Part shown: piece after piece, positions 1 to 47,756 of the stretch
Layout of the letters: each line of letters begins with the position of its first letter
Numbering within the stretch: the stretch's first letter is position 1
Source of the DNA: Erysipelotrichaceae bacterium
Lineage (GTDB): Bacteria > Bacteroidota > Bacteroidia > Bacteroidales > Paludibacteraceae
Direction: 5' to 3'
Assembly (NCBI GenBank): GCA_963633255.1
Contig: CAVGYO010000001.1
Span: forward strand, 1 to 47,756
Length of the DNA: 47,756 bases
Program-made: the position numbers and the translations under genes
The notes under the pieces: generated by a model
Database searches by the model: none
Seen by the model: the letters and a program-made list of their open reading frames with translations, nothing else
What the model was told of the DNA's origin: nothing

Positions 1-118
1 ATTGTCTGCGGCTTCGCCGCATCACTCCTCACTCCTAATTCCTAACTCCTCACTCAAGAACACTCCTCACTTCTCACTGCTCACTTGTCTTGCTACTTGC
101 TACTCATATCTTGCGACT
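1..118 (-). repeat. Dispersed intergenic repeat element, copy A (inverted orientation, touches window start)
   Basis: The reverse complement of 1-118 aligns with 43830-43918 and 47663-47756. The 36-nt core ggaattaggagtgaggagtgatgcggcgaagccgca is identical in all three copies (here it is the rc of 6-41). Hairpin TGCGGC-ttc-GCCGCA lies at 6-20. GTAGCAA and GTGAGGA-type heptads are present. Confidence 0.85.
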
Positions 119-21763: not shown

Positions 21764-24700
21764 TCAATAGGCGAATTTGCCCTGCGAAACACGCTTTTCG
21801 TCGTTGTAGTAGAATACATAGATCAGCGTTTTGCCCGTGCGTTGTATGCGAATGATAGTGCCAGCCGCGCCTGCATCGCAAATATCGTCGTTCGGGTCGA
21901 TGAGCGGCACATCGTGCTTGGTAATCAGTCGGCCAGCGGTGTCGTATATGGCCACCGACACATTGTTGCGCCGTGTGCTGGCTTTGAACAGGTCGCCGCC
22001 GAGCATTGTCCAGCAAACATCGTCGGCTGTTGGTGCGTCGCCCGGGTTGATGTCCGACTCGATGAACTTGATGGTGTAGGTTTGTGTGGTGCCATCTTCG
22101 GCGGTGCAATAGATGTACTGCGTGAAGCGGTCGGTGCGGTCTTCGCCATATTCTACCGTCTGCAGCAGCGAGTCGCTCGCTATGCCCTCGATGGTCGGAA
22201 TAGTGGTGGCACCTTTGGCAATGGTGTAAGTGTATTCAAACACATTCGGGTCGAAATCTTTCAGCGATTTGTGGTCGATGATGATGTCTTTCAGCAGAGC
22301 ATTGTCCGATTTTTCGATGGCAAACATCAGCACATAGACATTTGTTGCGCCGTTTTGTGCCGTTACCGAAACGAGAATGACAGCGTTGTTATCGACAATA
22401 GTCGTGAGCGTATCGCCCGCAGCAACGGTTACCGTTTGTCCCGCAGCGATGGTATTGACGGTATTTTCGTGCGACAAATAGCCTTCGTTGGTGAGTGTCA
22501 GCGTGGTGTCGGTCAGTTGCAGCGTTTGTGTGGCATAGGCCAAGGTTACCGTTTGGTCTTTGTCGCCTTTGGTATAGCGCACATTGGCCAGTTTCGGGAA
22601 ATCGTTTTCGGTTGTGCCAAGGTCGAACAACAGGTCGTAACTCGTCGAATCGGGGTGGAATAGCGGCTCGAAATTCGGGTAGATAACATCGACGAAATAG
22701 AGGTCTTTCAGTTTGTTGTTGTTCGACAGTGCCACGGTGAAGTTCAGTATGTACTCGTTGGTCTGCATTTCGTCTTGCGAAACAACGCTGATGCTTGCGC
22801 TGCCGTGTGTGCCGAGGCTGTCGGTAGTGAGTTCGTGTGTGTCGAGCGTTACCGATTTGTAGGCCGTTTCGGGCAGTTGCGTTTTCCAAGTGATGCTGGG
22901 CAGTTGTTCGGTGCCGTAGGGCAGTGTGATGTAGTATTCGTAGTCGTCGCTCGCAAAGTTTTCTTCTACTACGAAGTTGGCTGCCTGCGTACTGAGCGAA
23001 TCGCCATTGAGGAAAATCATTTGCAGGAAAGCGTTGTCCGACAATTTTGTGGTGAATGTGATGTGGTAAACGGTCGTGGTGCTGCCGTCGGCGGCGGTTA
23101 CGGTGATGGTGGCCGTGTTTTCGCCACGCACAACCTCAACGATTTGTTCTGCATCGCCCTTTTCGTAGGTGATTTCGAGATTGCTAACGGTTGTTCCGTA
23201 GGGCAGCGTAACATTGTATTCGGTTGTTTCTTTGTCGAAATTATCGATGGCAGTGCCGTTTAGCACGATGTTGTTCAGTGTGGCGATGTTCGATTTTGCA
23301 ACGCTGAAACTGAATGTGTAGGTGCGGCTGTTGCCGTTTTCGGCGGTTACGGTCAGTGTGTAGTGGCCGTTCAGTCCGTCGAAAATCGAATCTTTCGTTA
23401 CGGTTTGGAACGCATCGCCCGCTTCCCAAGTGATTTGCGGAATGGTGGTTGTGCCGTAGGGCATCACGCTGTCGTACTGCGTGGTGTTCGGGTCGAATCT
23501 GTCGTAAGGCAAATTGTCGAAGAAGATGTTGCGCAGCGTATCGGTGGGCGAGAGCAGCAGCGTGTTGTGCACGGTGTAGGTGCGTGTTGTGCCGTTTTCG
23601 GCGGTTACACGAATGACTGCGTTGTCGTTCAGTGTCGTCATCTGGTGCAGAATTTCGACGGTTTGATAAGCGTCGCTCCGCTCAAAATCGATGGTAACTT
23701 CGTCGCGTGTGCCGATGTCCCATGTTACATGGTAGTCGTTGGTGCGACCCGCAAAGGCGTGGTCGGCCGTGTAGTGTGTTCCCGACAGTGCCAAAGGTTC
23801 TTCTATGCCGTTGATATTCAGCACGATTGCCGCCAGCGTGTCGTTGGCCGATTTTTCGACGATGAAATGCAGCGTGTAGGTACGGCTGTTGCCCTTTTCG
23901 GCGGTTACGGTCAATGTCGATGTGGCGTTGTAGTCGTCGCTCACTTGCGTGTCGATGGTTACAGTTTGCCACTTATCGCCTTTGCCGCGGCTATCGTTGT
24001 CCGATGGCGCAATGGCTGGCCACTGGCGCGTGCCTATGGGCAGTGTGATGGTGTATTCGTACACATCGGCGGCAAAATTCTTGTCGGCGGCGAAGTTGGT
24101 TTGCCCCATCAGCAGCGAATCGCCATCGAGGTAAATCATTTTCAGTGTGTCGCTTTCCGACAGTTCCACATCGAAGAAGATGTTGTATGTTTTGGTCGTT
24201 TCGCCGTCGGGTGCGGTAACGGTGATGAGCGTTGTTTCGCGCACGCCGTTGTTGCTGATGGCGACGCTTTGTCCATCTTCGTCAAGCACAGCCACAATGT
24301 CGGGACGAATTTCGGTGCCAGCGGGCAGTGTGATGGTGTAGTCCGTTTTGTCGCTGTCGAAATCGGAAAGTGGCTCGCCGTCCACTTCGATTTGCGCCAA
24401 ATTGGTATTGCTAGAGCCTGCGGGTTTCGTGAAGGTAACGGTGTAGGTCTTCGTGTTGCCGTTTTCGGCCGTAACTGTGATAGTTGCCGCTTTCAGATTG
24501 ACGGTCAAATCGATTTTCTGTTGGAAGCGATCTTCGCTCGTGTAGTCGATGACTGGGATTTCGTTTTTCGACAGCAAAATGCTGTAATCCAGCGTGTTAG
24601 CATCAAACTCGGCGATGGCGATATAATCCACAGCAATGCTCGTCAGGTCGGCGTTGGCCGATTTTTCGGCAACGAAATTGAGCGTATAGACCTTTTCGGT

Positions 24701-27700
24701 GCCATCTTCGGCGGAAACCGTTATGGTCGTCGCTTCGTTCAGACCGTTCTGCTCCATGGCGATGGTTTGGTTGGCATCGTTGGCGCGGAAGGTGATGTTC
24801 GGCATTGTAGGTTCGTCTATCTTCGGATTGGCGCACCGCAGCGTGATGTTGTAGTCGGTAATATCGGCCGCAAACGCATGGTCTGCCGTGTATTCGGCGG
24901 CATCGGTGTTGAGCAGGCTGCCGTTGAGCATGATGGCCGCCAAAGTAGCGTCGCTCGAGGGCAGGTGGCGCAGACGAACGACCGTGGTTTTGGTGGTTAC
25001 ATTGTCTTCGGCGGTAACTTCGAATGTTGCTTCGGCAAAATAGTTGTCGCTTGCGCTACTTGCACTGCGTTGTGCTGCATTGTTGGTCGCTTGTCCGTTG
25101 AGCGTGAATTGCGCCTTTATCTGTTGACCAGCGTCGCCGTGAATGGCCTCGATAACCACAGGTTCGGTGCGGTCGATGGCGTATTCGTAAACGCTGCTGT
25201 TGAAGTTTTGCAGTGCTTGGCCGTTTATCAGAATGTTGGCCAAATCGGCATTATCCGACGGTGTGCGGTCGAACTGCAGCGTGTAGCGGTTGGTGTTTGT
25301 GCCGCGCACTTGCCAAACAACGCTGCCTTTTGTGATGGTTTGCGCCACAGTGTCGGTTGCGTCGATGCGCTCGAAAGTGGTGGCTGGTTGCGTGTTGGCG
25401 GTGTGGTGATAGTCGAATTGGTCTTGGTCGAAACTGTCGAAAGGCGTGTCGCTCAAAATGCTGATATTCGCCAATTTACCCGAAGTAACGGGTGCTTCCC
25501 AACCGAACACAATTTGGTAAGTCTTGGCGTCGGTGCCGTTTTCGGCCAGCACATCTAAACGCGTGGTATCGGCAGCGAACAGAGTTACCTGCTGTCCGTC
25601 GGACTGCTTGGTGAACGACACATTTGGCAACTGTTCGTTGGCGGTCAAGGTAACGCTGTAGTTCTCTGTGGCGCTGTCGAACGCTATGTCGTGTCCATCG
25701 ATGGTGATATTGGCCAAAGTGGCATCGTCCGATTTTTTCTCGACACGGTGGAGCAGATATTTTTGCGTATCTTTTCCGTTTTCGGCCACCACGATGATGG
25801 TATCGGTCTCGCCGTTTGTGCCGAAGCGCAGCGTTTGGTACATATTGCCACGAATCGCCACAATGTCGGGTGCGAAACGACTGCCGTTGGGCACTTGCAC
25901 GGTGTACTCAAGAGTTTTGGCGGCAAAATCGACCAGCGTGTCGCCATCGACGATGATGCCCGCCAGCGCAGCGTTGCTCGACAGCGGTCGGTTCAGATTG
26001 ACGATGTATTGGCTCGTGTTGCCGTCTTCGGCTTTCGATGTGATGGTTACAACGCGCGTTTTGTACTGTCCGCTGCAGTTGTCGGTCTCTTCGCTGTAAC
26101 TGTAGGTGTACTCTTGGTCGCTCACCTCGCCTTCGAAGGTCAGCACAGGGTCGCCTTGTAGTTCGGCATCGACTTTTACCGCCTGAATCCAGTTGCCGTC
26201 GTATTTGCCTTTGAAGCCTTTGGCCTCTTGCCCATTGACAAAAATTTTGGCGATTTTGCTGTTGTAGGCAAATTTCACCCAATCGACCAACAGCGTCGAA
26301 GCGGCCTTGCTTTTCAGCGCGCTGGCGTTGTCGCTTTCGCAACTGTTGATGGTGATGTTCATCATCGCTGGATTCTCTATCGTATTGTCGATGAGCGACA
26401 GTTCCATTGTTTTCCAACTGTTGTTGAAGTTGCGGTCGGTGAACTCTTTGGCGTATTTGCCGTTGTCGAGTGTGTAGGCAAAACTCATGTTGCCAACATT
26501 CGATTGCGACACAGGATTGTACGACATCGATACATGGTCGGGTGTGTTGCGGAACGGAATGCCGCCAAAAATCGATGTTGCGGACGAACCGTCGTTGAGG
26601 GTGGCGGTCATGTCGCCGAGCGTCATTGCACCGGGCATTGAGCCGTCTATCACTTTGCTGTAGGCGGTGGTGAGTTTGGCGTTGCTGCCGTCTTGCGTTA
26701 CCTCGCTGCCCGGCGTGAAAGTGCCTTTCGAGAAGAGGCTACCGATGGGCAGTCCAGCGATTGTTGCGCTACTTTTGATTTCGGTGGCGGTGGCAACATC
26801 GGCCAAAACCGTCCAGCCAGTGGGCTTCTGCGCCGATGTGGTGGCTTGTGCCGCTTCCCATTGGGCAAAATCGGCGTTTGGAATCACATCGTTGGTGTAG
26901 AAATAGTAGATGGTGTAGGTGGCGCTGCTGTCGTCGTCTTTGCCGAGAACGGTTATTTTGGTGCGTTTGGTGTTGCTCTCCTCTTCGTCGATGGTGGCGG
27001 TGGTGTTGTCGTAGGTGTAGGCAATCTCGGCGTTCGAGGTGTTGTCGTTGTCCACGCTCACCACATATTGGTATTTGTACGGGTCGAAATCGGCAATGGG
27101 CGTGCCATTCACCGAAATGCCAGTCAGTGTGGCTTGCGGTTTGGCCAGTTGCGGCGTGAGCGTATAAACCACATCGGCCACGCCTTCGCGGTTGGCTTTG
27201 ACGGTGATGGTGGTTGTGCCGTAGATGCCGCCGTTGTCGATGAGTACGGTTTGCTCGTCGTACTTTTTGAGACAGGTGATTTTGGGCAATACGGTCGTGC
27301 CGTAGGGCAGCGTGATGGTGTCGTTCAAAGCCGAAATCATGCCAACGCCATCGACAATGTAGTACTGCAAACCGTTGTCTTCGTCGCTTTCAGCCACTTC
27401 GAAGGCGATGTTGTAGGTGCGTTCGTCGCCATTTTCGGCTATCACGGTGAGGTGTGCGGTGTTGCGCAAACCAGCGTCGTGCAGTTTGATGCGCTGCCCG
27501 AGTGTTTGCCCATCTTTTTTGCCCAGTTCCCAATGAATGGCGGGCGCAACTGTGGTGCCGTAGGGCAGTTTTGCTACATAGTCCAGCACTTCGGCATCGA
27601 AGTCGGGCAGTAGTTCGTTGGCGTTGTCCACCGTCAGATTTTCGAGCGCGGTGATGTCCGATTTTTCTACATCGAAATAGATGCGATAGTCGGTCGAATT

Positions 27701-30700
27701 TTCGCCGTTTTCGGCCACTACACGCACGATGGTGGTGTCGTTCACGCTGTTGTAGTAGATGGTGATGGTCTGTCCGTCGTTGGCTGCCACGGGATTTATC
27801 GGTCGAACGGCAGTCTCGCCCCAAGCGAGCAGGTGCGTGTATTCGAGCGTTTCGGGCGTGAACCCATCGATGGATTTGTACTCGTTGCCGTCGTAAATTT
27901 GCAGGTCTTGCAGTTGGGCGTTGTCGCTTTTTTCAGCATCGAAATTGATTTTATACTCTTTGTTGTCGCCGTTTTGGGCGGTTACAACTATCTGCGTGCC
28001 GTTCAGTCCAGCGTTTGCTATGGCAATGTATTGTGTCGAGTCGATGTCGAGTTGTATATCGGGCGTTGTGGTGCTGGTCGTGCTGGTGTATTCGCTCGTT
28101 TCTGGCTGAAAATCAGCAATTTCGTCGCCATCTACACGGATGCCGTTGATGGTCGCTGCGGTCATCGGTGCGGCTTGGTAGGCGATGGTGTAGGTGAGGC
28201 GCGTTGTTCTGTCGGGCGCGGTTACCGCTATTTGCGCCGTGCCTGTGAGTACAGGTTCGGTTACGGCGTAGGTTTGCCCATCTACATTGCCTTCGAAGGT
28301 CAGTTGCGGTGCTTTGGTTGCACCAGCGGTCAGCGTGTGCGTGTAGTCGAGGGTTGCGCTCTCGAATCCGTTCAGCGGCGTGCCGTCGAGGACGATGTTT
28401 TTCAGCGTGGCATCGCTCGATATGGCGCGTGTGAAGGCAATTTTGTAGGTGGTTACGGTTTCGTCTTCGGCTTTCACAGCGATGGTTGTGCCGCCCCAGC
28501 CGTTGTTCGACACGAGTACGGTTTGCGTTTCGTTGCCTTTTTCGTAGCCAATGGTCGGCAGCGTGGCAGCGTAGGGCAGTTCTACGCTATATTCGAGCGT
28601 CTCGGGCGCAAAATCCGCTATGGTTGCACCATTAATCAGAATGTTGCTGAGCAGACTATTGCCGTTCAGCAGGCGGTCGGTAAAGAGAATTGTGTAGATG
28701 TTCGGGTCGCCAATTTCGGGCGTTACGGTGATTTTGGCTGTGCCGAGCAGCGCAGGTTTCACAATGCTCACACTCTGCCCCTCGTTTTTCTCTACACTGA
28801 TGCTGGGACAGGCTTTTACAACTGTAGTGTCGAGCAGATAGGCGTATTTGTTGGTTTTGGGGTCGAAATTCGGCAGTGCCACACCGTCGATGTAAATCTG
28901 GTTCAGCAGACGGTTCGACGATTTTTTTACCGAGAACAGGAGCGTGTAGTTGCGCACTGTGCCGTCTTCGGCGGTTACGGTGATGGTGGTTGTGCCGTTC
29001 ACATCGCCAGCAACAATCGTTACAGTCTGCGTGCTTTCGGCTTTGATTGGCGAAATTGCGGGCAGTTCGGTGGTGCTGCTGGGCAGTTCTATGGCGTATT
29101 CGAGCGTTTCGGGTGCAAAGTTGCTCAATGCTGTGCCGTCTATTTTTATGCCGCTCAAGGCTGCATTGCTCGATTTTTGTACCGAAAAGTGTATGATGTA
29201 AACCGCTGTGGCACCCGATTGCGCCCGCACGGTGATTTTTGTGTCGCCGTCCACGCCGTCTTTGCGCATGCTGATGGTTTGCCATGCGTCGCCAGCGGTG
29301 TAGGCGATGTTGGGCAGGGTGGTGGTGCCGCTACGGAGTGTTATGCTGTATTCCAGTTGCGCTGGGTTGAAGTCGAGCGTGTAGCCATCGATGGCGATGT
29401 TGCCGAGTTGCGTGTTGTCGGCCTGTTTCACCGAAAAGTTGATGGAGTAGGTGCTCGACGAGCCGTCTTGCGCTTTTGCAATGATGCGCGTTGTGCCGCT
29501 CACGCCGTTGGTGATGATGGTTGGCTCGCTTTGGTAACTGTCGCCTTTGGTGTAGGTGATGGCGGGCAGTGCCGTGGTGCCGATGGGCAGTTCGTATGTG
29601 TAATTGAGCGTGTATTCGTCGAAATTCGGCAGCAATACGCCGTCGAGATAGATGGCTTTCAGGGTCGAAACCGACGATTTGGCGGCGGTGAACACAATTT
29701 TGTAGGTGCATTTTGCGCCGCTTGCCGCTGTTACAACTATTTTGTATGTGCCTTCGATGCCGCTGATTCCGCTTGCATCGGTGGCGATGGTCTGGTATTC
29801 GTCGCCCTGTTCGTAGGTTATTTTGGGCAGACTGGTTGTGCCGAGTGGCAGATTTTGATAATAGGTCGTTTTTTCAGCGTCCCAACCCTCTATTGCTACG
29901 CCGTCGAGTTTCAAACTTTTCAGGTAGCAGTAGGTCGATGCGGTGATTTTGAACGACAGTTTGTAGGTGCGTGTGGTGGTGTTGCCAGGGGCTTTCACGG
30001 CAATGTTGTAGGTGCCAGTGCAACTGCCGTCGGCAATTTTCACGCCATTGCTCACGGTGATGGTTTGCGCACCCGCTGCGTATGCCGATGTGTAGGTGAT
30101 GGTGGGCAAAGTTGTTGTGCCGAGCGGCAACTCTACGGTGTAGTTGTTTTTGGTTGGGCTGAAACCAGCGATGGATTTACCGCCAACTTGTATGTCTTGC
30201 AGCGTGTTGTCGGTCAGTTTGCCTATCGAAAACGCAATGCGATAGGTGTTTGTTGCACCGTTGGCGGCTTTCACGCTGATGGTGGCTGTGCCTGTCGGTG
30301 TGGTGGCTTGCGTAATGCTGATGGTCTGCCCGTCGTCGCCTTTGGTTACGCTCACAACTGGGGCTTCGGTGGTGCCGTAGGGCAGTTCTACGCTATATTC
30401 GGTGATGTAGCCGTTGTAGTTTGGCACCGAGGTGGTGATGTCGCCCACTGTGTACGAAATGCTTGCGGGGCGGTTGTTCGACGACTGCTCGGCCACAAAT
30501 TTGATTTTGTAGGTCGATGTGCGCTTGCCGTCTTCCGATTTCACGGTGATAACTACAGGTTCGCCGCCTACCGTTGCTTTCGAACGGTCGATGCTGATTT
30601 CGCTGCCCGACAGTACGCGCCCCGAGAAAGAAACGCTTGTGCCGCGGCAGTTGGTGAGTGTGCCCACACCACGCTTGGCAAACATATCGGGAATCTCCGT

Positions 30701-31585
30701 CGCACCAAGTCCAAGGGCGTAGGTCTGCTCTTCACCGTTGTTTTTCTTCGGGTCGAAGCCGCTCCAACGGCGGTTGTTCACATACAATTCGTCGATATTC
30801 GAACTGTAAATCAACTCTACATCGTCGATATAGAGGTCGTTGCCCGGATAGATGCCGCTGTTGGCACGGAAATTGGGATAGTTGCCCGCCGAAAAAATTA
30901 CATTACACTTTTCTGGCGTGTCTGCTTTGCCCGTGTAGTAAATCGGCACTTTTATCTGTGTCCATTCCGAGTAGGTTTTGTACTCTTTTACCCAACCTTC
31001 GGCCACTTGGTCGGCAAATTGGCTGGTGGAACATTTGTTGCCGTCGAGGGCTTGGCGTATATCCGACTCTTCGTCGGTGTGCGTGGTCGAGGTGCAACCA
31101 CCGCTCTTGCCTGTGTATGAGTTGCCTACCGATGTGCCTTTCCACGAGTAGAACATCAGGTGGAAATACTCTTTGTCGGTGTTGTTGCCAGTGCGCTTTA
31201 TCCAAACGCTCATGGTGTCGGGGTGGTATTTGAAACTGATGCCGCCGTCGCAACCTGCCGTGGCTTCGCTCACTTTGGTGATGCTTTCGAGATACGACCA
31301 CGGTTTTCCCAAGGCCATATAGCCAGGCGCAGGCTCGGTAATGCCAGCCGCACCAACCTCCTTGTCGGTTACGTATGCGCACGAACCGCCGTTGCGACCT
31401 TCGCGCTTGTACATGAATGTGAATTTGAAACCGACTTGCGTTACATTCGAGCCGTGCCAATTTTTCAATTGCGCATCGCCGTTGAACGAATCGCTCCAAT
31501 CTTCAAATCCCGAGTCGGGCAGTTGCTGCGCTATGGCTGCAAGAGCCAAGGTCAGCAAGTATATGGTAATTCTATATCGTCTCAT
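21764..31585 (-). CDS. Giant (3273 aa) T9SS-sorted surface protein: signal peptide, PCMD-like domain, ~15 cadherin-like beta-sandwich repeats, second PCMD-like domain, ~15 more repeats, Por-type C-terminal domain
   Basis: The start was moved to MRRYRITIYLLTLALAAIAQQ (cat at 31583-31585). The N-terminal region LPDSGFEDWSD...LYIDDVELIYSS (~30800-31525) resembles the PCMD family. There are about 30 repeats of ~85-95 aa with the pattern S-x-N-x-L-x-I-x-(V/I)-D-G...F-x-P-x-x-x-x-Y...LP-x-GTT...I-x-V-x-AE(D/N)G...TY-x-I-x-F. A second PCMD-like block, NDVIPNADFAQWEAAQ...LLVDWVKFAYNS, lies at ~26255-26895. The C-terminus ...VSVAIYDTAGRLITKH...TLIYVFYYNDEKRVSQGKFAY resembles TIGR04183. Confidence 0.9.
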   Translation of the reverse strand: MRRYRITIYLLTLALAAIAQQLPDSGFEDWSDSFNGDAQLKNWHGSNVTQVGFKFTFMYKREGRNGGSCAYVTDKEVGAAGITEPAPGYMALGKPWSYLESITKVSEATAGCDGGISFKYHPDTMSVWIKRTGNNTDKEYFHLMFYSWKGTSVGNSYTGKSGGCTSTTHTDEESDIRQALDGNKCSTSQFADQVAEGWVKEYKTYSEWTQIKVPIYYTGKADTPEKCNVIFSAGNYPNFRANSGIYPGNDLYIDDVELIYSSNIDELYVNNRRWSGFDPKKNNGEEQTYALGLGATEIPDMFAKRGVGTLTNCRGTSVSFSGRVLSGSEISIDRSKATVGGEPVVITVKSEDGKRTSTYKIKFVAEQSSNNRPASISYTVGDITTSVPNYNGYITEYSVELPYGTTEAPVVSVTKGDDGQTISITQATTPTGTATISVKAANGATNTYRIAFSIGKLTDNTLQDIQVGGKSIAGFSPTKNNYTVELPLGTTTLPTITYTSAYAAGAQTITVSNGVKIADGSCTGTYNIAVKAPGNTTTRTYKLSFKITASTYCYLKSLKLDGVAIEGWDAEKTTYYQNLPLGTTSLPKITYEQGDEYQTIATDASGISGIEGTYKIVVTAASGAKCTYKIVFTAAKSSVSTLKAIYLDGVLLPNFDEYTLNYTYELPIGTTALPAITYTKGDSYQSEPTIITNGVSGTTRIIAKAQDGSSSTYSINFSVKQADNTQLGNIAIDGYTLDFNPAQLEYSITLRSGTTTLPNIAYTAGDAWQTISMRKDGVDGDTKITVRAQSGATAVYIIHFSVQKSSNAALSGIKIDGTALSNFAPETLEYAIELPSSTTELPAISPIKAESTQTVTIVAGDVNGTTTITVTAEDGTVRNYTLLFSVKKSSNRLLNQIYIDGVALPNFDPKTNKYAYLLDTTVVKACPSISVEKNEGQSVSIVKPALLGTAKITVTPEIGDPNIYTILFTDRLLNGNSLLSNILINGATIADFAPETLEYSVELPYAATLPTIGYEKGNETQTVLVSNNGWGGTTIAVKAEDETVTTYKIAFTRAISSDATLKNIVLDGTPLNGFESATLDYTHTLTAGATKAPQLTFEGNVDGQTYAVTEPVLTGTAQIAVTAPDRTTRLTYTIAYQAAPMTAATINGIRVDGDEIADFQPETSEYTSTTSTTTPDIQLDIDSTQYIAIANAGLNGTQIVVTAQNGDNKEYKINFDAEKSDNAQLQDLQIYDGNEYKSIDGFTPETLEYTHLLAWGETAVRPINPVAANDGQTITIYYNSVNDTTIVRVVAENGENSTDYRIYFDVEKSDITALENLTVDNANELLPDFDAEVLDYVAKLPYGTTVAPAIHWELGKKDGQTLGQRIKLHDAGLRNTAHLTVIAENGDERTYNIAFEVAESDEDNGLQYYIVDGVGMISALNDTITLPYGTTVLPKITCLKKYDEQTVLIDNGGIYGTTTITVKANREGVADVVYTLTPQLAKPQATLTGISVNGTPIADFDPYKYQYVVSVDNDNTSNAEIAYTYDNTTATIDEEESNTKRTKITVLGKDDDSSATYTIYYFYTNDVIPNADFAQWEAAQATTSAQKPTGWTVLADVATATEIKSSATIAGLPIGSLFSKGTFTPGSEVTQDGSNAKLTTAYSKVIDGSMPGAMTLGDMTATLNDGSSATSIFGGIPFRNTPDHVSMSYNPVSQSNVGNMSFAYTLDNGKYAKEFTDRNFNNSWKTMELSLIDNTIENPAMMNITINSCESDNASALKSKAASTLLVDWVKFAYNSKIAKIFVNGQEAKGFKGKYDGNWIQAVKVDAELQGDPVLTFEGEVSDQEYTYSYSEETDNCSGQYKTRVVTITSKAEDGNTSQYIVNLNRPLSSNAALAGIIVDGDTLVDFAAKTLEYTVQVPNGSRFAPDIVAIRGNMYQTLRFGTNGETDTIIVVAENGKDTQKYLLHRVEKKSDDATLANITIDGHDIAFDSATENYSVTLTANEQLPNVSFTKQSDGQQVTLFAADTTRLDVLAENGTDAKTYQIVFGWEAPVTSGKLANISILSDTPFDSFDQDQFDYHHTANTQPATTFERIDATDTVAQTITKGSVVWQVRGTNTNRYTLQFDRTPSDNADLANILINGQALQNFNSSVYEYAIDRTEPVVIEAIHGDAGQQIKAQFTLNGQATNNAAQRSASSASDNYFAEATFEVTAEDNVTTKTTVVRLRHLPSSDATLAAIMLNGSLLNTDAAEYTADHAFAADITDYNITLRCANPKIDEPTMPNITFRANDANQTIAMEQNGLNEATTITVSAEDGTEKVYTLNFVAEKSANADLTSIAVDYIAIAEFDANTLDYSILLSKNEIPVIDYTSEDRFQQKIDLTVNLKAATITVTAENGNTKTYTVTFTKPAGSSNTNLAQIEVDGEPLSDFDSDKTDYTITLPAGTEIRPDIVAVLDEDGQSVAISNNGVRETTLITVTAPDGETTKTYNIFFDVELSESDTLKMIYLDGDSLLMGQTNFAADKNFAADVYEYTITLPIGTRQWPAIAPSDNDSRGKGDKWQTVTIDTQVSDDYNATSTLTVTAEKGNSRTYTLHFIVEKSANDTLAAIVLNINGIEEPLALSGTHYTADHAFAGRTNDYHVTWDIGTRDEVTIDFERSDAYQTVEILHQMTTLNDNAVIRVTAENGTTRTYTVHNTLLLSPTDTLRNIFFDNLPYDRFDPNTTQYDSVMPYGTTTIPQITWEAGDAFQTVTKDSIFDGLNGHYTLTVTAENGNSRTYTFSFSVAKSNIATLNNIVLNGTAIDNFDKETTEYNVTLPYGTTVSNLEITYEKGDAEQIVEVVRGENTATITVTAADGSTTTVYHITFTTKLSDNAFLQMIFLNGDSLSTQAANFVVEENFASDDYEYYITLPYGTEQLPSITWKTQLPETAYKSVTLDTHELTTDSLGTHGSASISVVSQDEMQTNEYILNFTVALSNNNKLKDLYFVDVIYPNFEPLFHPDSTSYDLLFDLGTTENDFPKLANVRYTKGDKDQTVTLAYATQTLQLTDTTLTLTNEGYLSHENTVNTIAAGQTVTVAAGDTLTTIVDNNAVILVSVTAQNGATNVYVLMFAIEKSDNALLKDIIIDHKSLKDFDPNVFEYTYTIAKGATTIPTIEGIASDSLLQTVEYGEDRTDRFTQYIYCTAEDGTTQTYTIKFIESDINPGDAPTADDVCWTMLGGDLFKASTRRNNVSVAIYDTAGRLITKHDVPLIDPNDDICDAGAAGTIIRIQRTGKTLIYVFYYNDEKRVSQGKFAY

Positions 31586-43113: not shown

Positions 43114-43914
43114 GTGGAACTTTTCGAGAAAATAGCGCGCAAAGTCAATGCTGCACTCAAAAATTACGCCCTGATAGCCGACGGCGATAAAATTCTCATC
43201 GGACTTTCGGGCGGCAAGGACTCGCTGGCGTTGGTGGAGTTTTTGAGCGAGCGCGCCAAAATCTACAAGCCGCGTTTTTCGGTGGTGGCGGCACATATTT
43301 CGGTCGAAAATGTACCCTACCAGTCCGATTTGTCCTACCTCGACGACTTTTGTCGCCAGCACGGCGTGCCGTTTGTTCATCGCACCACCAAATTCGATGC
43401 CTCGACCGACCCACGCAAGTCGCACTGTTTTCTCTGTTCGTGGAATCGGCGAAAGGCGTTATTCGCTGTGGCAGAGGAACTTGGCTGCAACAAAATTGCT
43501 CTTGGCCACCACCGCGACGATATGCTCGAAACGCTGTTGATGAACCAGATTTTTCAGGGTGCGTTCGCTTCGATGCCGCCCAAACTGCGCATGGACAAGT
43601 TCGATATGACCATCATTCGTCCCTTGGCCGATGTGCGCGAAGCCGATTTGCAGGCGTTGGCGGTGCAGCGTGGCTATCGGAAGCAGATAAAAAACTGCCC
43701 CTACGAACGCGACTCGCACCGCAGCGATGTACGCCGCCTGCTCGAAGCCATGGAACGCCTCAACCCCAACGCCGCCTCGTCGCTCTGGAACAGCATGCAA
43801 CATGTGCAGCCGCAGTATTTGCCTCAAAAAGTCGCAAGATGTGAGTCGCAAGTAGCAAGAAAAGTGAGGAGTGAGGAATTAGGAGTGAGGAGTGATGCGG
43901 CGAAGCCGCAATGA
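43114..43914 (+). CDS. ttcA: PP-loop ATPase, TtcA-like tRNA 2-thiocytidine synthetase; C-terminal ~27 aa encoded by a repeat element
   Basis: GTG start. SGGKDS PP-loop and CFLCSWNRR (CxxC). The tail [27 protein letters not shown] and the TGA stop lie inside repeat copy B. Confidence 0.82.
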   Translation: MELFEKIARKVNAALKNYALIADGDKILIGLSGGKDSLALVEFLSERAKIYKPRFSVVAAHISVENVPYQSDLSYLDDFCRQHGVPFVHRTTKFDASTDPRKSHCFLCSWNRRKALFAVAEELGCNKIALGHHRDDMLETLLMNQIFQGAFASMPPKLRMDKFDMTIIRPLADVREADLQALAVQRGYRKQIKNCPYERDSHRSDVRRLLEAMERLNPNAASSLWNSMQHVQPQYLPQKVARCESQVARKVRSEELGVRSDAAKPQ

Positions 43915-43918
43915 CAAT
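43830..43918 (+). repeat. Dispersed intergenic repeat element, copy B (complete)
   Basis: Layout: agtcgcaagatgtgagtcgcaagtagcaaga, then (GTGAGGA/ATTAGGA) heptads, then hairpin TGCGGC-gaa-GCCGCA (43896-43910), then atgacaat. The 36-nt core at 43875-43910 is identical to copies A and C. Confidence 0.88.
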
Positions 43919-43920
43919 TA

Positions 43921-43948
43921 GTAGCAAGTAGCAAGTAGCAAGTAGCAA
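43921..43948 (+). repeat. Tandem heptamer array (GTAGCAA)x4
   Basis: Four perfect units read directly. The same heptamer occurs in the 5' part of all three element copies, and the array continues ...gtagcaagaca as in copies A and C, so this may be the 5' stub of a second, tandem element. Confidence 0.9.
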
Positions 43949-43961
43949 GACATTGATAATT

Positions 43962-43988
43962 ATTTGAAAATTTGAAGATTTGAAGATT
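43962..43988 (+). repeat. Tandem octamer array (ATTTGAAG)x3 plus partial
   Basis: Reads atttgaaa atttgaag atttgaag att. Confidence 0.85.
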
Positions 43989-44014
43989 ATTGCGACATTG
44001 TTGATACCGACAAC

Positions 44015-44050
44015 TAGAAATTAGAAATCTAGAAATTAGAAATTAGAAAT
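44015..44050 (+). repeat. Tandem heptamer array (TAGAAAT)x5
   Basis: Reads tagaaat tagaaat c tagaaat tagaaat tagaaat. Confidence 0.9.
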
Positions 44051-44072
44051 TAACGCCAATGCGTTAAACCGA

Positions 44073-44103
44073 TCAACCAATCAACCAATCAACCAATCAA
44101 CCA
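44073..44103 (+). repeat. Tandem octamer array (TCAACCAA)x4
   Basis: Three perfect units plus tcaacca. Confidence 0.9.
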
Positions 44104-44109
44104 GAAATC

Positions 44110-44141
44110 GCTTCAACGCTTCAACAGTTCAACGCTTCAAC
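44110..44141 (+). repeat. Tandem octamer array (GCTTCAAC)x4
   Basis: Reads gcttcaac gcttcaac agttcaac gcttcaac. Confidence 0.9.
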
Positions 44142-44142
44142 G

Positions 44143-44166
44143 ATTAAACAATTAAACAATTAAACA
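44143..44166 (+). repeat. Tandem octamer array (ATTAAACA)x3
   Basis: Three perfect units. Confidence 0.9.
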
Positions 44167-44170
44167 GAAC

Positions 44171-44203
44171 TTTGCACACTTTCAAACTTTTTTCGTATCT
44201 TTG
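44171..44203 (+). promoter_or_regulatory. Bacteroidetes-type promoter for serS
   Basis: TTTG at 44171-44174, a 21-nt spacer, then TATCTTTG at 44196-44203. The ATG is at 44243. Confidence 0.6.
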
Positions 44204-44242
44204 CAGGTTGATTGAACGACGAGATTTTTATTGCAAAACAAT

Positions 44243-45520
44243 ATGCTTACACTCAAACAAATTATCGGAAACCGCGACGAGGTGGTTCGTCGTCTGGGGA
44301 AAAAACATTTTGCGCCAGCGGCCGAAATGATTGACCAAGTGATAGCCGACGATGCCGACCGCCGCGCCGCCCAAAAAGAGTTAGACGCCAAACTGGCACA
44401 AATCAACCAACTGTCGAAATCGATAGGCGGACTGATGCAACAAGGCAAAAAAGCCGAAGCCGAACAAGCCAAAGCCGAAGTGGCAGCACTGAAAGATGCC
44501 ACAAAACAACTGTCGGCACAGATGGAAGAGAAAGAGAACGCCATGCGCGACCTGCTGCTGCAAATTCCTAATCTGCCCAAAGAGAGCGTGCCAGAAGGCA
44601 CTTGCGCCGACGACAATGTGGTAGAAAAAATGGGCGGCGAAATGCCCAAATTCGACGGATTCGAACCGCTGCCACACTGGGAGTTGGCAAAAAAATACGA
44701 CCTTATCGATTTTGAACTTGGCGTGAAAATTTCGGGCGCAGGATTCCCCGTGTACAAAGGACTTGGCGCACGCTTGCAACGCGCACTCATCAACTTTTTC
44801 CTCGACGAGGCGCGCGCCGCTGGCTATCTCGAAATTATGCCGCCAACGGTGGTGAATGCGGCTTCGGGGTACGGCACTGGTCAACTGCCCGACAAAGAGG
44901 GGCAGATGTATCACGCCGAGGTGGACGATCTCTACCTGATTCCTACCGCCGAAGTGCCTGTAACGAACATCTACCGCAATGTGATTCTGAACGAAAAAGA
45001 CCTGCCGATAAAAAATTGCGCCTACACGCAGTGCTTCCGCCGCGAGGCTGGCTCGTATGGCAAAGATGTGCGCGGGCTGAACCGTCTGCACGAGTTCTCG
45101 AAAATCGAAATTGTGCGCATCGATACGCCCGAACACAGCGAAGAGTCGCACCGCGAAATGCTGGCGCATGTCGAAGGACTGCTCAAAAAACTGGAACTGC
45201 CCTACCGCATTTTGCGCCTCTGTGGCGGCGATATGAGTTTCACCGCTGCACTCTGCTTCGATTTCGAAACATTCTCGGCAGCACAAAAACGCTGGCTCGA
45301 AGTCAGTTCCGTGTCGAATTTCGAGGCATATCAGGCCAACCGCTTGAAGTGCCGCTACAAAACCGCCGACGGCAAAACCGAACTTTGCCACACGCTCAAC
45401 GGATCGGCATTGGCACTGCCGCGCATCGTGGCTACCATACTCGAAAACAACCAAACGCCCGACGGCATTCGTGTGCCGAAAGTGCTGGTGCCTTACATGG
45501 GCTGCGAAATCATCAAGTGA
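44243..45520 (+). CDS. serS: Seryl-tRNA synthetase
   Basis: Translation MLTLKQIIGNRDEVVRRL... with an N-terminal coiled coil; class II motifs ...FRREAGSYGKDVRGLNRLHEF...GSALALPR. The ATG at 44243 is preferred to the TTG at 44231. Confidence 0.96.
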   Translation: MLTLKQIIGNRDEVVRRLGKKHFAPAAEMIDQVIADDADRRAAQKELDAKLAQINQLSKSIGGLMQQGKKAEAEQAKAEVAALKDATKQLSAQMEEKENAMRDLLLQIPNLPKESVPEGTCADDNVVEKMGGEMPKFDGFEPLPHWELAKKYDLIDFELGVKISGAGFPVYKGLGARLQRALINFFLDEARAAGYLEIMPPTVVNAASGYGTGQLPDKEGQMYHAEVDDLYLIPTAEVPVTNIYRNVILNEKDLPIKNCAYTQCFRREAGSYGKDVRGLNRLHEFSKIEIVRIDTPEHSEESHREMLAHVEGLLKKLELPYRILRLCGGDMSFTAALCFDFETFSAAQKRWLEVSSVSNFEAYQANRLKCRYKTADGKTELCHTLNGSALALPRIVATILENNQTPDGIRVPKVLVPYMGCEIIK

Positions 45521-47689: not shown

Positions 47690-47756
47690 GAGTGAGAAGT
47701 GGTTTTTGAGTTAGGAGTTAGGAATTAGGAGTGAGGAGTGATGCGGCGAAGCCGCA
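47663..47756 (+). repeat. Dispersed intergenic repeat element, copy C (cut by window end immediately after the hairpin)
   Basis: The sequence gataatgttagtagcaagacaagttaggagtgagaagtgg...ggaattaggagtgaggagtgatgcggcgaagccgca aligns with rc(1-118) and with copy B. The 36-nt core at 47721-47756 is identical. Confidence 0.85.

Follow-up and report, generated by a model that had tools for sequence, protein, structure and literature searches.

Short GC-rich hairpins of the repetitive extragenic palindromic (REP) and bacterial interspersed mosaic element (BIME) type lie mostly downstream of open reading frames (ORFs), where they are plausibly transcribed as RNA elements (PMC3733652), and effects on mRNA stability or attenuation have been proposed for them (PMC3733652, PMC2817692). 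Heptameric simple sequence repeats (SSRs) form a second kind of intergenic repeat, known from the short tandemly repeated repetitive (STRR)-type heptanucleotides of Calothrix and Nostoc, from GGGAATC in Xanthomonas and from GGGGAYT in Nostoc (PMC4692102; Mrazek 2007 as cited there). Direct repeats of TAACTGA have been described in marine Beggiatoaceae, in cyanobacteria and in five Bacteroidetes, Paludibacter propionicigenes among them (PMC4679880). The element analysed here combines the first two kinds, a heptameric SSR and a REP/BIME mosaic. It recurs in a stretch of 47,756 nucleotides (the whole of the DNA analysed, hereafter the window; contig CAVGYO010000001.1 of assembly GCA_963633255.1), which was deposited as an Erysipelotrichaceae bacterium and is placed by GTDB in the Paludibacteraceae. 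It consists of tandem heptads that run into a 6-bp hairpin, H1, and one of its copies (copy B) supplies the end of a ttcA-like gene.

A sequence-only reading of the window had set out copy B as an array of GTCGCAA-like heptads, a second array of purine-rich heptads and a terminal hairpin, and when the sequence was re-read this layout matched letter for letter (Table 1). The fifth purine-rich heptad, GTGATGC (array 43864-43898), overlaps the start of the hairpin in register, and the period-7 arrays of the element are called by Tandem Repeats Finder (TRF). For the hairpin 15-mer 0.26 occurrences are expected in the window and three are seen, a count reached in 0 of 100 shuffles; for the heptad dimer the figures are 0.12 and 13. 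Copy B is, as first recognised, the sole complete copy in the window; the other two (copies A and C) are cut by the contig ends, both of which (1-21 and 47742-47756) lie within H1 copies. The window contig evidently broke at the repeat, and the related contigs L071, L083, L084, L088 and L091 likewise end in repeats. Because short-read assemblies of this lineage break at these elements, the H1 copy numbers given below are underestimates. The original delimitation of an 89-nt unit has to be given up, the whole 43826-44190 spacer being a mosaic of 7/8-nt arrays.

The ttcA ORF runs through the heptads and the hairpin, and both its translation and an alignment of orthologs agree with the earlier claim that its last 27 codons or so and its TGA stop are element sequence. 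The length of TtcA homologs is 234-254 aa, and a conserved QYLP lies 3-12 residues before their end. Fifteen TtcA proteins of the window protein's 90% cluster, sharing 92-99% identity with it, stay invariant as far as P237; beyond this residue the alignment shows nine other tails of 0-13 residues, those listed being none, KK, KSRK, VSRK, KSSK, KSSKI, ASSKI, KKSQESEK, KKSQDVSCK or KKSQDVSSKPNEE. The tails are GTCGCAA/GTAGCAA heptads translated in differing frames and copy numbers, and that of the window protein (29 residues past P237) is the longest because its frame avoids every TGA and TAG. MreC behaves in the same way in alignment, its last residues and stop codon coming from the element. 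Relatives at 82-89% TtcA identity keep the gene order pdxB-ttcA-serS-mreB-mreC with a repeat-free ttcA-serS spacer of 66-87 nt and the same serS promoter motifs, where the window has ~360 nt of repeats from the last ttcA codons to the serS promoter. The short native end and compact spacer of these repeat-free orthologs bear out the proposal that an insertion remodelled the TtcA C-terminus. Comparison of TtcA and MreC with element-free orthologs, which the sequence-only reading had called for, indicates on the alignment that the ttcA tail is element-derived and not ancestral coding sequence, and further copies of the element exist. Moreover, of 380 genes in the loci sampled around H1 copies, 67 (18%) have a 7/8-nt array that contains their stop codon, and in 35 more an array starts no more than 10 nt from the stop. 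Both the nature of the element and its effect on neighbouring genes are well supported, and the turnover of non-coding repeats is here seen directly rewriting protein C-termini and stop codons.

Across the family, a typical unit of ~40-120 nt is made up of an optional GTCGCAAGATRTGA, (GTMGCAA)n, a short linker, (RTKAGNA)n, GTGA-TGCGGC-RRA-GCCGCA and (ATTTCAR)n, with the RTKAGNA heptads often in two blocks parted by GTG-T(n)-GA. The repeat zone 5' of the hairpin spans 11-95 nt (median 39), with a unit number from ~1 to more than 15. Eight of 82 copies have the S-Q-linker-P architecture of copy B. The hairpin is followed by ATTTCAR in 55 of the 82 and by ATGACAR in 11, copy B included, in which the first downstream unit is replaced. 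Composite units are 92-96% identical over 70-83 nt between loci, and sub-architectures are common to unrelated loci, which argues that whole composite units are copied and not grown separately at each site. The hairpin had been described as invariant. This holds nearly so for the stem in 97 instances, most of them selected by a pattern that fixes the stem, so that the sample is biased in this respect; the loop, however, is variable (AGA 33, AAA 27, GAA 24, GGA 3, GAT 1). The tag before the hairpin in these instances is nearly always GTGA, with GTGG or another in a few. A design of the heptads as stops in all three frames was considered and rejected, since the core GTGAGGA-ATTAGGA-GTGAGGA-GTGATGC covers two frames only; it is for this reason that ttcA reads through. 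Sense-strand stops are found in 79% of arrays by gene ends and 40% by gene starts, against 58% expected, with the trend reversed on the antisense strand; this gradient along the spacers is a tendency and not a design.

We searched for the family with the exact core AGGAGTGATGCGGCNNNGCCGCA in a species-representative genome collection. Among the matches listed there were 66 loci in three metagenome-assembled genomes (MAGs) of one European Nucleotide Archive (ENA) series, with at least 35, at least 25 and at least 10 exact cores; the four further matches listed, in unrelated GC-rich genomes, are chance. More H1 copies were found in four further MAGs, and the CAVBBP MAG has a degenerate variant, GTGA-AGCGGC-AAA-GCCGCA, at the end of its ttcA. 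Logan contigs (assemblies of Sequence Read Archive runs) with the same genes break within heptads and have the same module grammar. A Joint Genome Institute (JGI) contig (sample 3300001525), reached via a protein route, shows this grammar at the ttcA end with a second hairpin, H2, replacing H1. Furthermore, in a more distant relative (83% TtcA identity), known from an independent ENA assembly, different heptads occupy the same place and again encode the TtcA tail. The genome-wide search that the first reading had proposed reveals a genuine multi-copy family, which is not an artefact of one assembly.

With the exact core, JGI metagenome contigs yielded just three matches, all chance ones in unrelated GC-rich DNA, and viral contigs none; BLAST of plasmid and phage records returned no element copies, only 30-nt (AGTAGCA)n coincidences. 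The (AGTAGCA)n array of the window (43920-43949) is 100% identical over 30 nt to a plasmid of the cyanobacterium Chondrocystis and to several Staphylococcus phages, probably through independent birth of the same simple repeat. With Rfam 15 there was no match at the gathering threshold in the window apart from one tRNA, and none at E<=1 across 43780-44260; in the literature we found no description of this element or of Paludibacteraceae repeats. The statement that the element belongs to no described family stands as far as Rfam is concerned, although heptameric SSR/STRR-type arrays are known in other phyla (PMC4692102, PMC4679880).

The three MAGs, CAVBBP01, CAVKTI01 and CAVKQB01 (loci L001-L070), are labelled Segatella copri, Acutalibacteraceae bacterium and Leyella stercorea. 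Genes of CAVBBP and CAVKTI are ~96% identical and those of CAVKQB ~89% identical to both; CAVBBP carries a TtcA of the window's 90% cluster, CAVKQB probably does too, and the nearest named relative is a Paludibacteraceae MAG. Given these shared genes, the cluster TtcA and the nearest named relative, the organism labels look wrong and are probably unreliable, and the three MAGs appear to be one genus-level lineage.

H1 does not stand alone. TRF of the 489 kb around H1 copies, a sample enriched by design, called 473 period-7 and 354 period-8 arrays covering 5.1% of bases, built from more than 170 distinct units, of which heptamers make up more than 80 and octamers more than 90. In the window itself arrays take up 1.1% of bases, nearly all of them at the three H1 sites. 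ORFs contain just 40 of the 787 non-redundant arrays, and in 84% of cases the orientation of a unit type relative to gene direction is constant. The first hairpin after a gene end comes mostly from four families: H1 (69, a count that the sampling inflates), H2 (20) and two G/C-tract hairpins (9 and 6). H2, GTAG-GGACGCAC-N4-GTGCGTCC, has 53 copies in the sampled loci (e.g. L012 5434-5456; L004, L020, L031) and none in the window, with 25 sense and 8 antisense, and the presence of GTAG on one side in 49 of the 53 fits the GTAG-tagged REP super-family (PMC3733652). Its variants GTAG-GGGCGCA..TGCGCCC (L085) and GGACG-CGGCATGCCA-CGTCC (L048, L071) keep tag and palindrome with a changed stem, and T7-8 comes after some H2 copies, as in canonical terminators. 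Stretches of ~620 nt between two H2 hairpins (L004 271-889; L049 1734-2351) contain no ORF longer than 56 aa and are purely repeat-built, non-coding DNA.

The two hairpins can take each other's place. At the same gene end H1 is present in one genome and H2 in another whose genes are ~96% identical, and the same was seen between the window and L071 and L092, which suggests that what is kept is a hairpin after the gene. With about even confidence, we regard the H1 element as one module of a transcription-oriented mosaic that is specific to a Paludibacteraceae-like genus of gut Bacteroidales.

Strains with identical MreC differ in heptad number, composition and loop base. The unit CAACCAAT is present in 4, 3 or 2 copies in otherwise identical spacers, and the numbers of other units vary too. 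Slippage loops of 7-8 nt are beyond mismatch-repair correction. A contig 99.1% identical to the window diverges completely from 15 nt into the element, and in genomes with ~96% identical genes orthologous spacers hold unrelated modules, with divergence from the last 2-3 codons. Gene order changes at the same places: prfC, not serS, follows ttcA in CAVBBP, CAVDHO and the JGI contig, and an M23 peptidase gene, not ttcA, precedes the same H1-spacer-serS arrangement in another MAG, whose MreC is 99% identical (L087 960-1380, compared with window 43830-44240). It is at the repeat spacers that these breaks in synteny, or assembly chimeras, fall. Gene insertions of 1.2-1.5 kb also occur at spacers between ~96% identical genomes (L003 492-1986; L063 4251-5490), one being a helix-turn-helix (HTH)-containing two-ORF cassette and the other a 373-aa ORF that appears ATPase-like.

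The position and orientation of H1 relative to genes were tabulated, as the sequence-only reading had recommended, with gene calls in the sampled loci made by a greedy longest-ORF heuristic. H1 lies near-exclusively in the sense orientation, after gene 3' ends. A same-strand gene ends upstream of 67 of 82 orientable copies, its stop codon a median of 41 nt before the hairpin, and in co-directional spacers 47 copies are sense and one is antisense (p ~3e-13 against 50:50). The promoter motif TAnnTTTG, as searched for, is strict and has a sensitivity of ~50%; it was found in only 5 of 56 intervals from H1 to the next co-directional gene, and in 9% of array-rich co-directional spacers, as compared with 30% of array-poor co-directional and 52% of array-poor divergent ones. 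Promoter-like motifs precede the next gene at ttcA-serS; H1 also lies within the mreC-mreD-pbp2 junction, 130 nt before mreD, without this motif. These spacers are most likely transcribed with the upstream gene, often within operons, so that their polarity would reflect constraints on RNA.

At the other end of the spacers, arrays often extend right up to the start codon (ATG). C/A-rich arrays (CAACCAAT, CACACTTT, TAGAAAC, TCTGAAAT) reach within a few bases of the next start codon without TAnnTTTG (L002, L012, L018, L022, L041, L044 and others). A Shine-Dalgarno (SD)-like tetramer at -20..-5 precedes 3 of 43 window genes, in line with the earlier remark that genes in the window show no SD, and 5% of 402 genes overall, on rough start calls. 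Only a modest excess of C over G in the downstream arrays (0.12-0.23 vs 0.07-0.17) was noted when these were looked at for Rho-loading (rut) character.

The reading that we favour, with moderate confidence, is that the element is a transcribed REP/BIME-like hairpin at mRNA 3' ends and between cistrons, accompanied by slippage arrays and set in an oriented mosaic. Among the three options raised by the sequence-only reading (a mobile element of REP type or of MITE type (miniature inverted-repeat transposable element), an mRNA 3'-end element, or a protein- or ribosome-binding RNA), the second appears to fit best. The spacers would be transcribed with the upstream gene, often inside operons, and H1 would act on the RNA as a barrier to 3'-to-5' exonucleases or as a weak attenuator, setting the 3' end and the stability of the upstream cistron without being an efficient terminator. 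Classic work on malE-malF stabilisation and on BIME attenuation reportedly provides precedents. The heptads may be slippage-prone simple repeats that are tolerated beside genes because sense units mostly carry TGA or TAG. Arrays common to many loci would, because they are so shared, offer homology tracts through which ectopic recombination could shuffle modules and flanking genes, whereas new copies may be seeded by gene conversion or by a hairpin-specific enzyme. The rewriting of C-terminal tails and stop codons would then be a by-product of array change and spacer swapping.

Several points weigh against this proposal. Transcription through the spacer, the 3' ends and stabilisation are all argued from sequence, and non-canonical promoters may lie inside the arrays, the promoter test having used one strict motif on heuristic gene calls. 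In this strain's ttcA the ribosome translates through the hairpin, which complicates a 3'-end role at copy B. Across the 97 instances the stem shows no covariation, only one-sided breaks, and the argument for H1 as a structure comes from the palindrome and from variation concentrated in the loop. Likewise, the whole element and the spacer fold no better than shuffled sequences (z = -0.8 and -0.5), only the 6-bp hairpin being real. Finally, some of the strain differences could be short-read assembly chimeras, with contigs breaking at repeats; the pattern of strain differences is the same, however, in contigs that span both flanking genes.

It is unlikely, in our judgement, that the element is instead a terminator cassette, in which the GC hairpin and the interrupted U-rich ATTTCAR would form a factor-independent or NusA/NusG-assisted terminator at the ends of transcription units, the repeats being carried along. 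Such a cassette would account for the sense orientation and the short median distance past stop codons. It would also fit the window element, which replaces the native hairpin-plus-T-run of a repeat-free relative upstream of the retained serS promoter, as well as the interchange of H1 with H2, some copies of which have T7-8, and the preponderance of four repeat families among the first hairpins after gene ends. However, the stem comes without a U-tract (AUUUCAA or AUGACAA follows it), as had been noted at the outset, the tail being ATGACAA in copy B and ATTTCAR in most copies. A consensus scan that calls canonical hairpin-plus-T-run terminators in the same window passes over H1, and the ttcA stop codon lies past the hairpin. 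We favour the REP/BIME-like transcribed hairpin over the terminator because H1 is found inside the mreC-mreD-pbp2 operon junction and because 51 of 56 downstream intervals are without the promoter motif, which is depleted from array-rich co-directional spacers generally.

A purely selfish, non-autonomous mobile element with no host function is likewise improbable. An enzyme that recognises hairpins (a REP-associated tyrosine transposase (RAYT)/IS200-like Y1 transposase or other) would move it in trans, and the orientation bias would reflect purifying selection only. Near-identical composites at dozens of unrelated loci, the whole-unit copying implied by shared sub-architectures, presence or absence that varies among close relatives and the GTAG tag on the neighbouring H2, as in RAYT-associated REPs (PMC3733652), are all consistent with mobility. 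H1 itself is a short GC-rich palindrome (15 nt), high in copy number, extragenic and mainly downstream of ORFs, like REPs, but its tag is GTGA and not the unpaired GTAG or CGTC of that group (PMC3733652). As a REP, H1 fails on the tag and on doublets. No inverted doublets or alternating BIME arrays were seen, H1 copies being singletons whose closest listed neighbours of the same family are at least 500 nt apart and bracket ordinary genes. In the ~0.5 Mb sampled, the 15 intervals bracketed by hairpin pairs hold ordinary (housekeeping) genes or no ORF, and no transposase, RAYT or other, was found among the ORFs so bracketed. Phage and plasmid records and viral contigs are without copies, and an orientation bias of 47:1 is far beyond what is usual for REPINs (REP doublets) or MITEs.

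A MITE was considered separately and rejected. The element has neither terminal inverted repeats nor paired copies; its flanks are different direct arrays, and the best candidate for a terminal inverted repeat is 18 nt long with 72% complementarity, an A-run against a T-run. No target duplication is visible in comparison with the empty site of a relative that is only ~80% identical in the flanking DNA.

A broader joint reading would be that an active, sequence-specific process writes or copies oriented modules (7/8-nt arrays and hairpins) into transcribed spacers via an enzyme system, such as a hairpin-directed HUH nuclease or a templated repeat-adding activity, and that the mosaics serve SD-less expression as a functional grammar. 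In it the upstream cistron would be closed by the hairpin and by purine-rich arrays with stops, and C/A-rich unstructured arrays would lead to the next start codon. We hold this to be doubtful. If true, intercistronic regions would here be built in a manner that is new, and the process would drive rearrangement within species as well as C-terminal variation.

A protein- or ribosome-binding RNA platform, whose (G/U)AG-GA units, recurring every 7 nt, would titrate the anti-SD or an RNA-binding protein at mRNA 3' ends, seems very unlikely. Four to five AGGAG motifs in sense orientation, the near absence of SD-like motifs upstream of genes and a unit vocabulary common to many loci would suit it, and binding of S1, Csp or CsrA has been proposed for TAACTGA heptamers (PMC4679880). 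However, position 6 of the unit is free (GGA, GAA, GTA, GCA), with GTGAGAA, GTGAGTA and GTGAGCA common; the ribosome-binding option of the sequence-only reading is weakened in particular, as the GGAG core is unconserved among units. Unit number and length of the 5' zone vary widely, as given above, and dozens of unrelated units behave alike. Furthermore, the anti-SD is sequestered in Bacteroidota ribosomes, and to our knowledge CsrA and TRAP are not typical of this phylum.

An assembly or library artefact confined to one MAG project, to which the single ENA MAG series with inconsistent labels that holds all the exact-core genome-collection matches (among those listed) and the contigs ending in repeats might point, is most improbable, given elements placed precisely between intact syntenic genes, the same modules in Logan assemblies and in a JGI contig (sample 3300001525), other heptads in an independent ENA assembly, and orthologous loci with related, non-identical copies.

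Coordinates of the copies and of the features around them are collected in Table 1. The window also contains a very long minus-strand ORF (3273 aa, 21764-31585).

Table 1. Features of the three H1 element copies and of the ttcA-serS region in the window.
Feature	Position	Strand	Composition and remarks
ttcA-like ORF	43114-43914	+	PP-loop ATPase (PF01171), 266 aa; residues 240-266 and stop element-encoded
Copy B, entire element	43831-43918	+	layout read directly from sequence
Copy B, 5' module	43831-43863	+	GTCGCAA (43831-37), GATGTGA (43838-44), GTCGCAA (43845-51), GTAGCAA (43852-58) and linker GAAAA
Copy B, purine-rich heptads	43864-43895	+	consensus RTKAGNA: GTGAGGA, GTGAGGA, ATTAGGA, GTGAGGA, then GTGA
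Copy B, hairpin H1	43896-43910	+	TGCGGC-GAA-GCCGCA; 6-bp stem, 3-nt purine loop
Copy B, tail variant	43911-43918	+	ATGACAAT; holds ttcA TGA stop (43912-43914); (ATTTCAR)n here in most family members
Rest of ttcA-serS spacer	43919-44166	+	AGTAGCA x4.3, ATTTGAAG x3.4, TAGAAAT x5.3, AACCAATC x4.6, CGCTTCAA x4.2, AACAATTA x3.5
Small hairpin	44050-44067		TTAACGC-CAAT-GCGTTAA, 7 bp; within array chain after copy B
Native serS promoter-like motifs	44171-44203	+	TTTG (44171-74), TATCTTTG (44196-203); kept in repeat-free relatives; right-hand insertion limit
Copy A, truncated by contig start	1-117	-	upstream of rpsL and pointing away from it; minus-strand order GTCGCAA-GATATGA-GTAGCAA-GTAGCAA-GACAA; GTGAGCA/GTGAGAA/GTGAGGA; spacer GTGTTCTTGA; GTGAGGA-GTTAGGA-ATTAGGA-GTGAGGA-GTGATGC; hairpin (21..7); GACAAT
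Copy C, truncated by contig end	47669-47756	+	GTTAGTAGCAA-GACAA-GTTAGGA-GTGAGAA; spacer GTGGTTTTTGA; GTTAGGA-GTTAGGA-ATTAGGA-GTGAGGA-GTGATGC; hairpin 47742-47756; mreC TAG stop (47687-89) inside heptads

These genomes offer a dense natural data set, with hundreds of arrays, dozens of units, a strict polarity and turnover from strain to strain, on the long-standing question of why heptanucleotide repeats accumulate in some bacterial genomes and whether they are functional. The repeats fragment short-read MAGs and may also give rise to chimeras at joins and to faulty annotation, for instance proteins whose length varies inside a 90% cluster. Should the hairpin and the arrays prove to tune mRNA 3' ends or initiation without an SD in Bacteroidales, gut Bacteroidota could be engineered with them as useful parts.

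Like the REP/BIME elements and the GTAG-REP super-family (PMC3733652, PMC2817692), the elements described here are short GC-rich hairpins of high copy number that are extragenic and downstream of ORFs, including inside operons; they lie between co-directional or convergent genes in mosaics with other motifs, are plausibly transcribed and vary between strains, and H2 fits the GTAG-REPs. They differ in that H1 has the tag GTGA (rarely GTGG), a stem of only 6 bp and neither inverted doublets nor alternating orientation, and in that its strand bias is 47:1 and it is embedded in 7/8-nt tandem arrays, which are absent from REP/BIMEs. With the heptameric SSRs (long simple sequence repeat (LSSR)/STRR-type) the arrays share a head-to-tail 7-nt organisation, an overwhelmingly intergenic location, length and sequence polymorphism between strains, presumably by slippage, and a position nearer the upstream ORF (~28 nt in Xanthomonas; here at or across the stop codon) (PMC4692102). 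Those SSRs, however, have one or few unit types and no strand preference (30% vs 35%) (PMC4692102), whereas the present arrays use their large set of heptamer and octamer units in a fixed order, are joined to hairpin modules, are strongly polar with respect to transcription and often overlap stop codons.

The TAACTGA repeats (PMC4679880) are also intergenic heptamers oriented to genes without canonical ribosome-binding sites, and some of our arrays likewise reach start codons. The units here are nevertheless different (RTKAGNA/GTMGCAA) and of many types, have a hairpin partner and stand after stop codons rather than a few nt before start codons. BrickBuilt of Porphyromonas gingivalis is said to be a MITE with terminal inverted repeats and an internal minisatellite of ~23 bp units; it resembles the H1 element as a dispersed, non-coding Bacteroidales element with a variable tandem array, but the H1 element has no terminal inverted repeats and its units are of 7 nt. 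What sets the H1 element apart from these systems is its many unit types, a fixed order, the partnership with a hairpin, a near-absolute sense orientation and the frequent supply of stop codons to the genes it follows.

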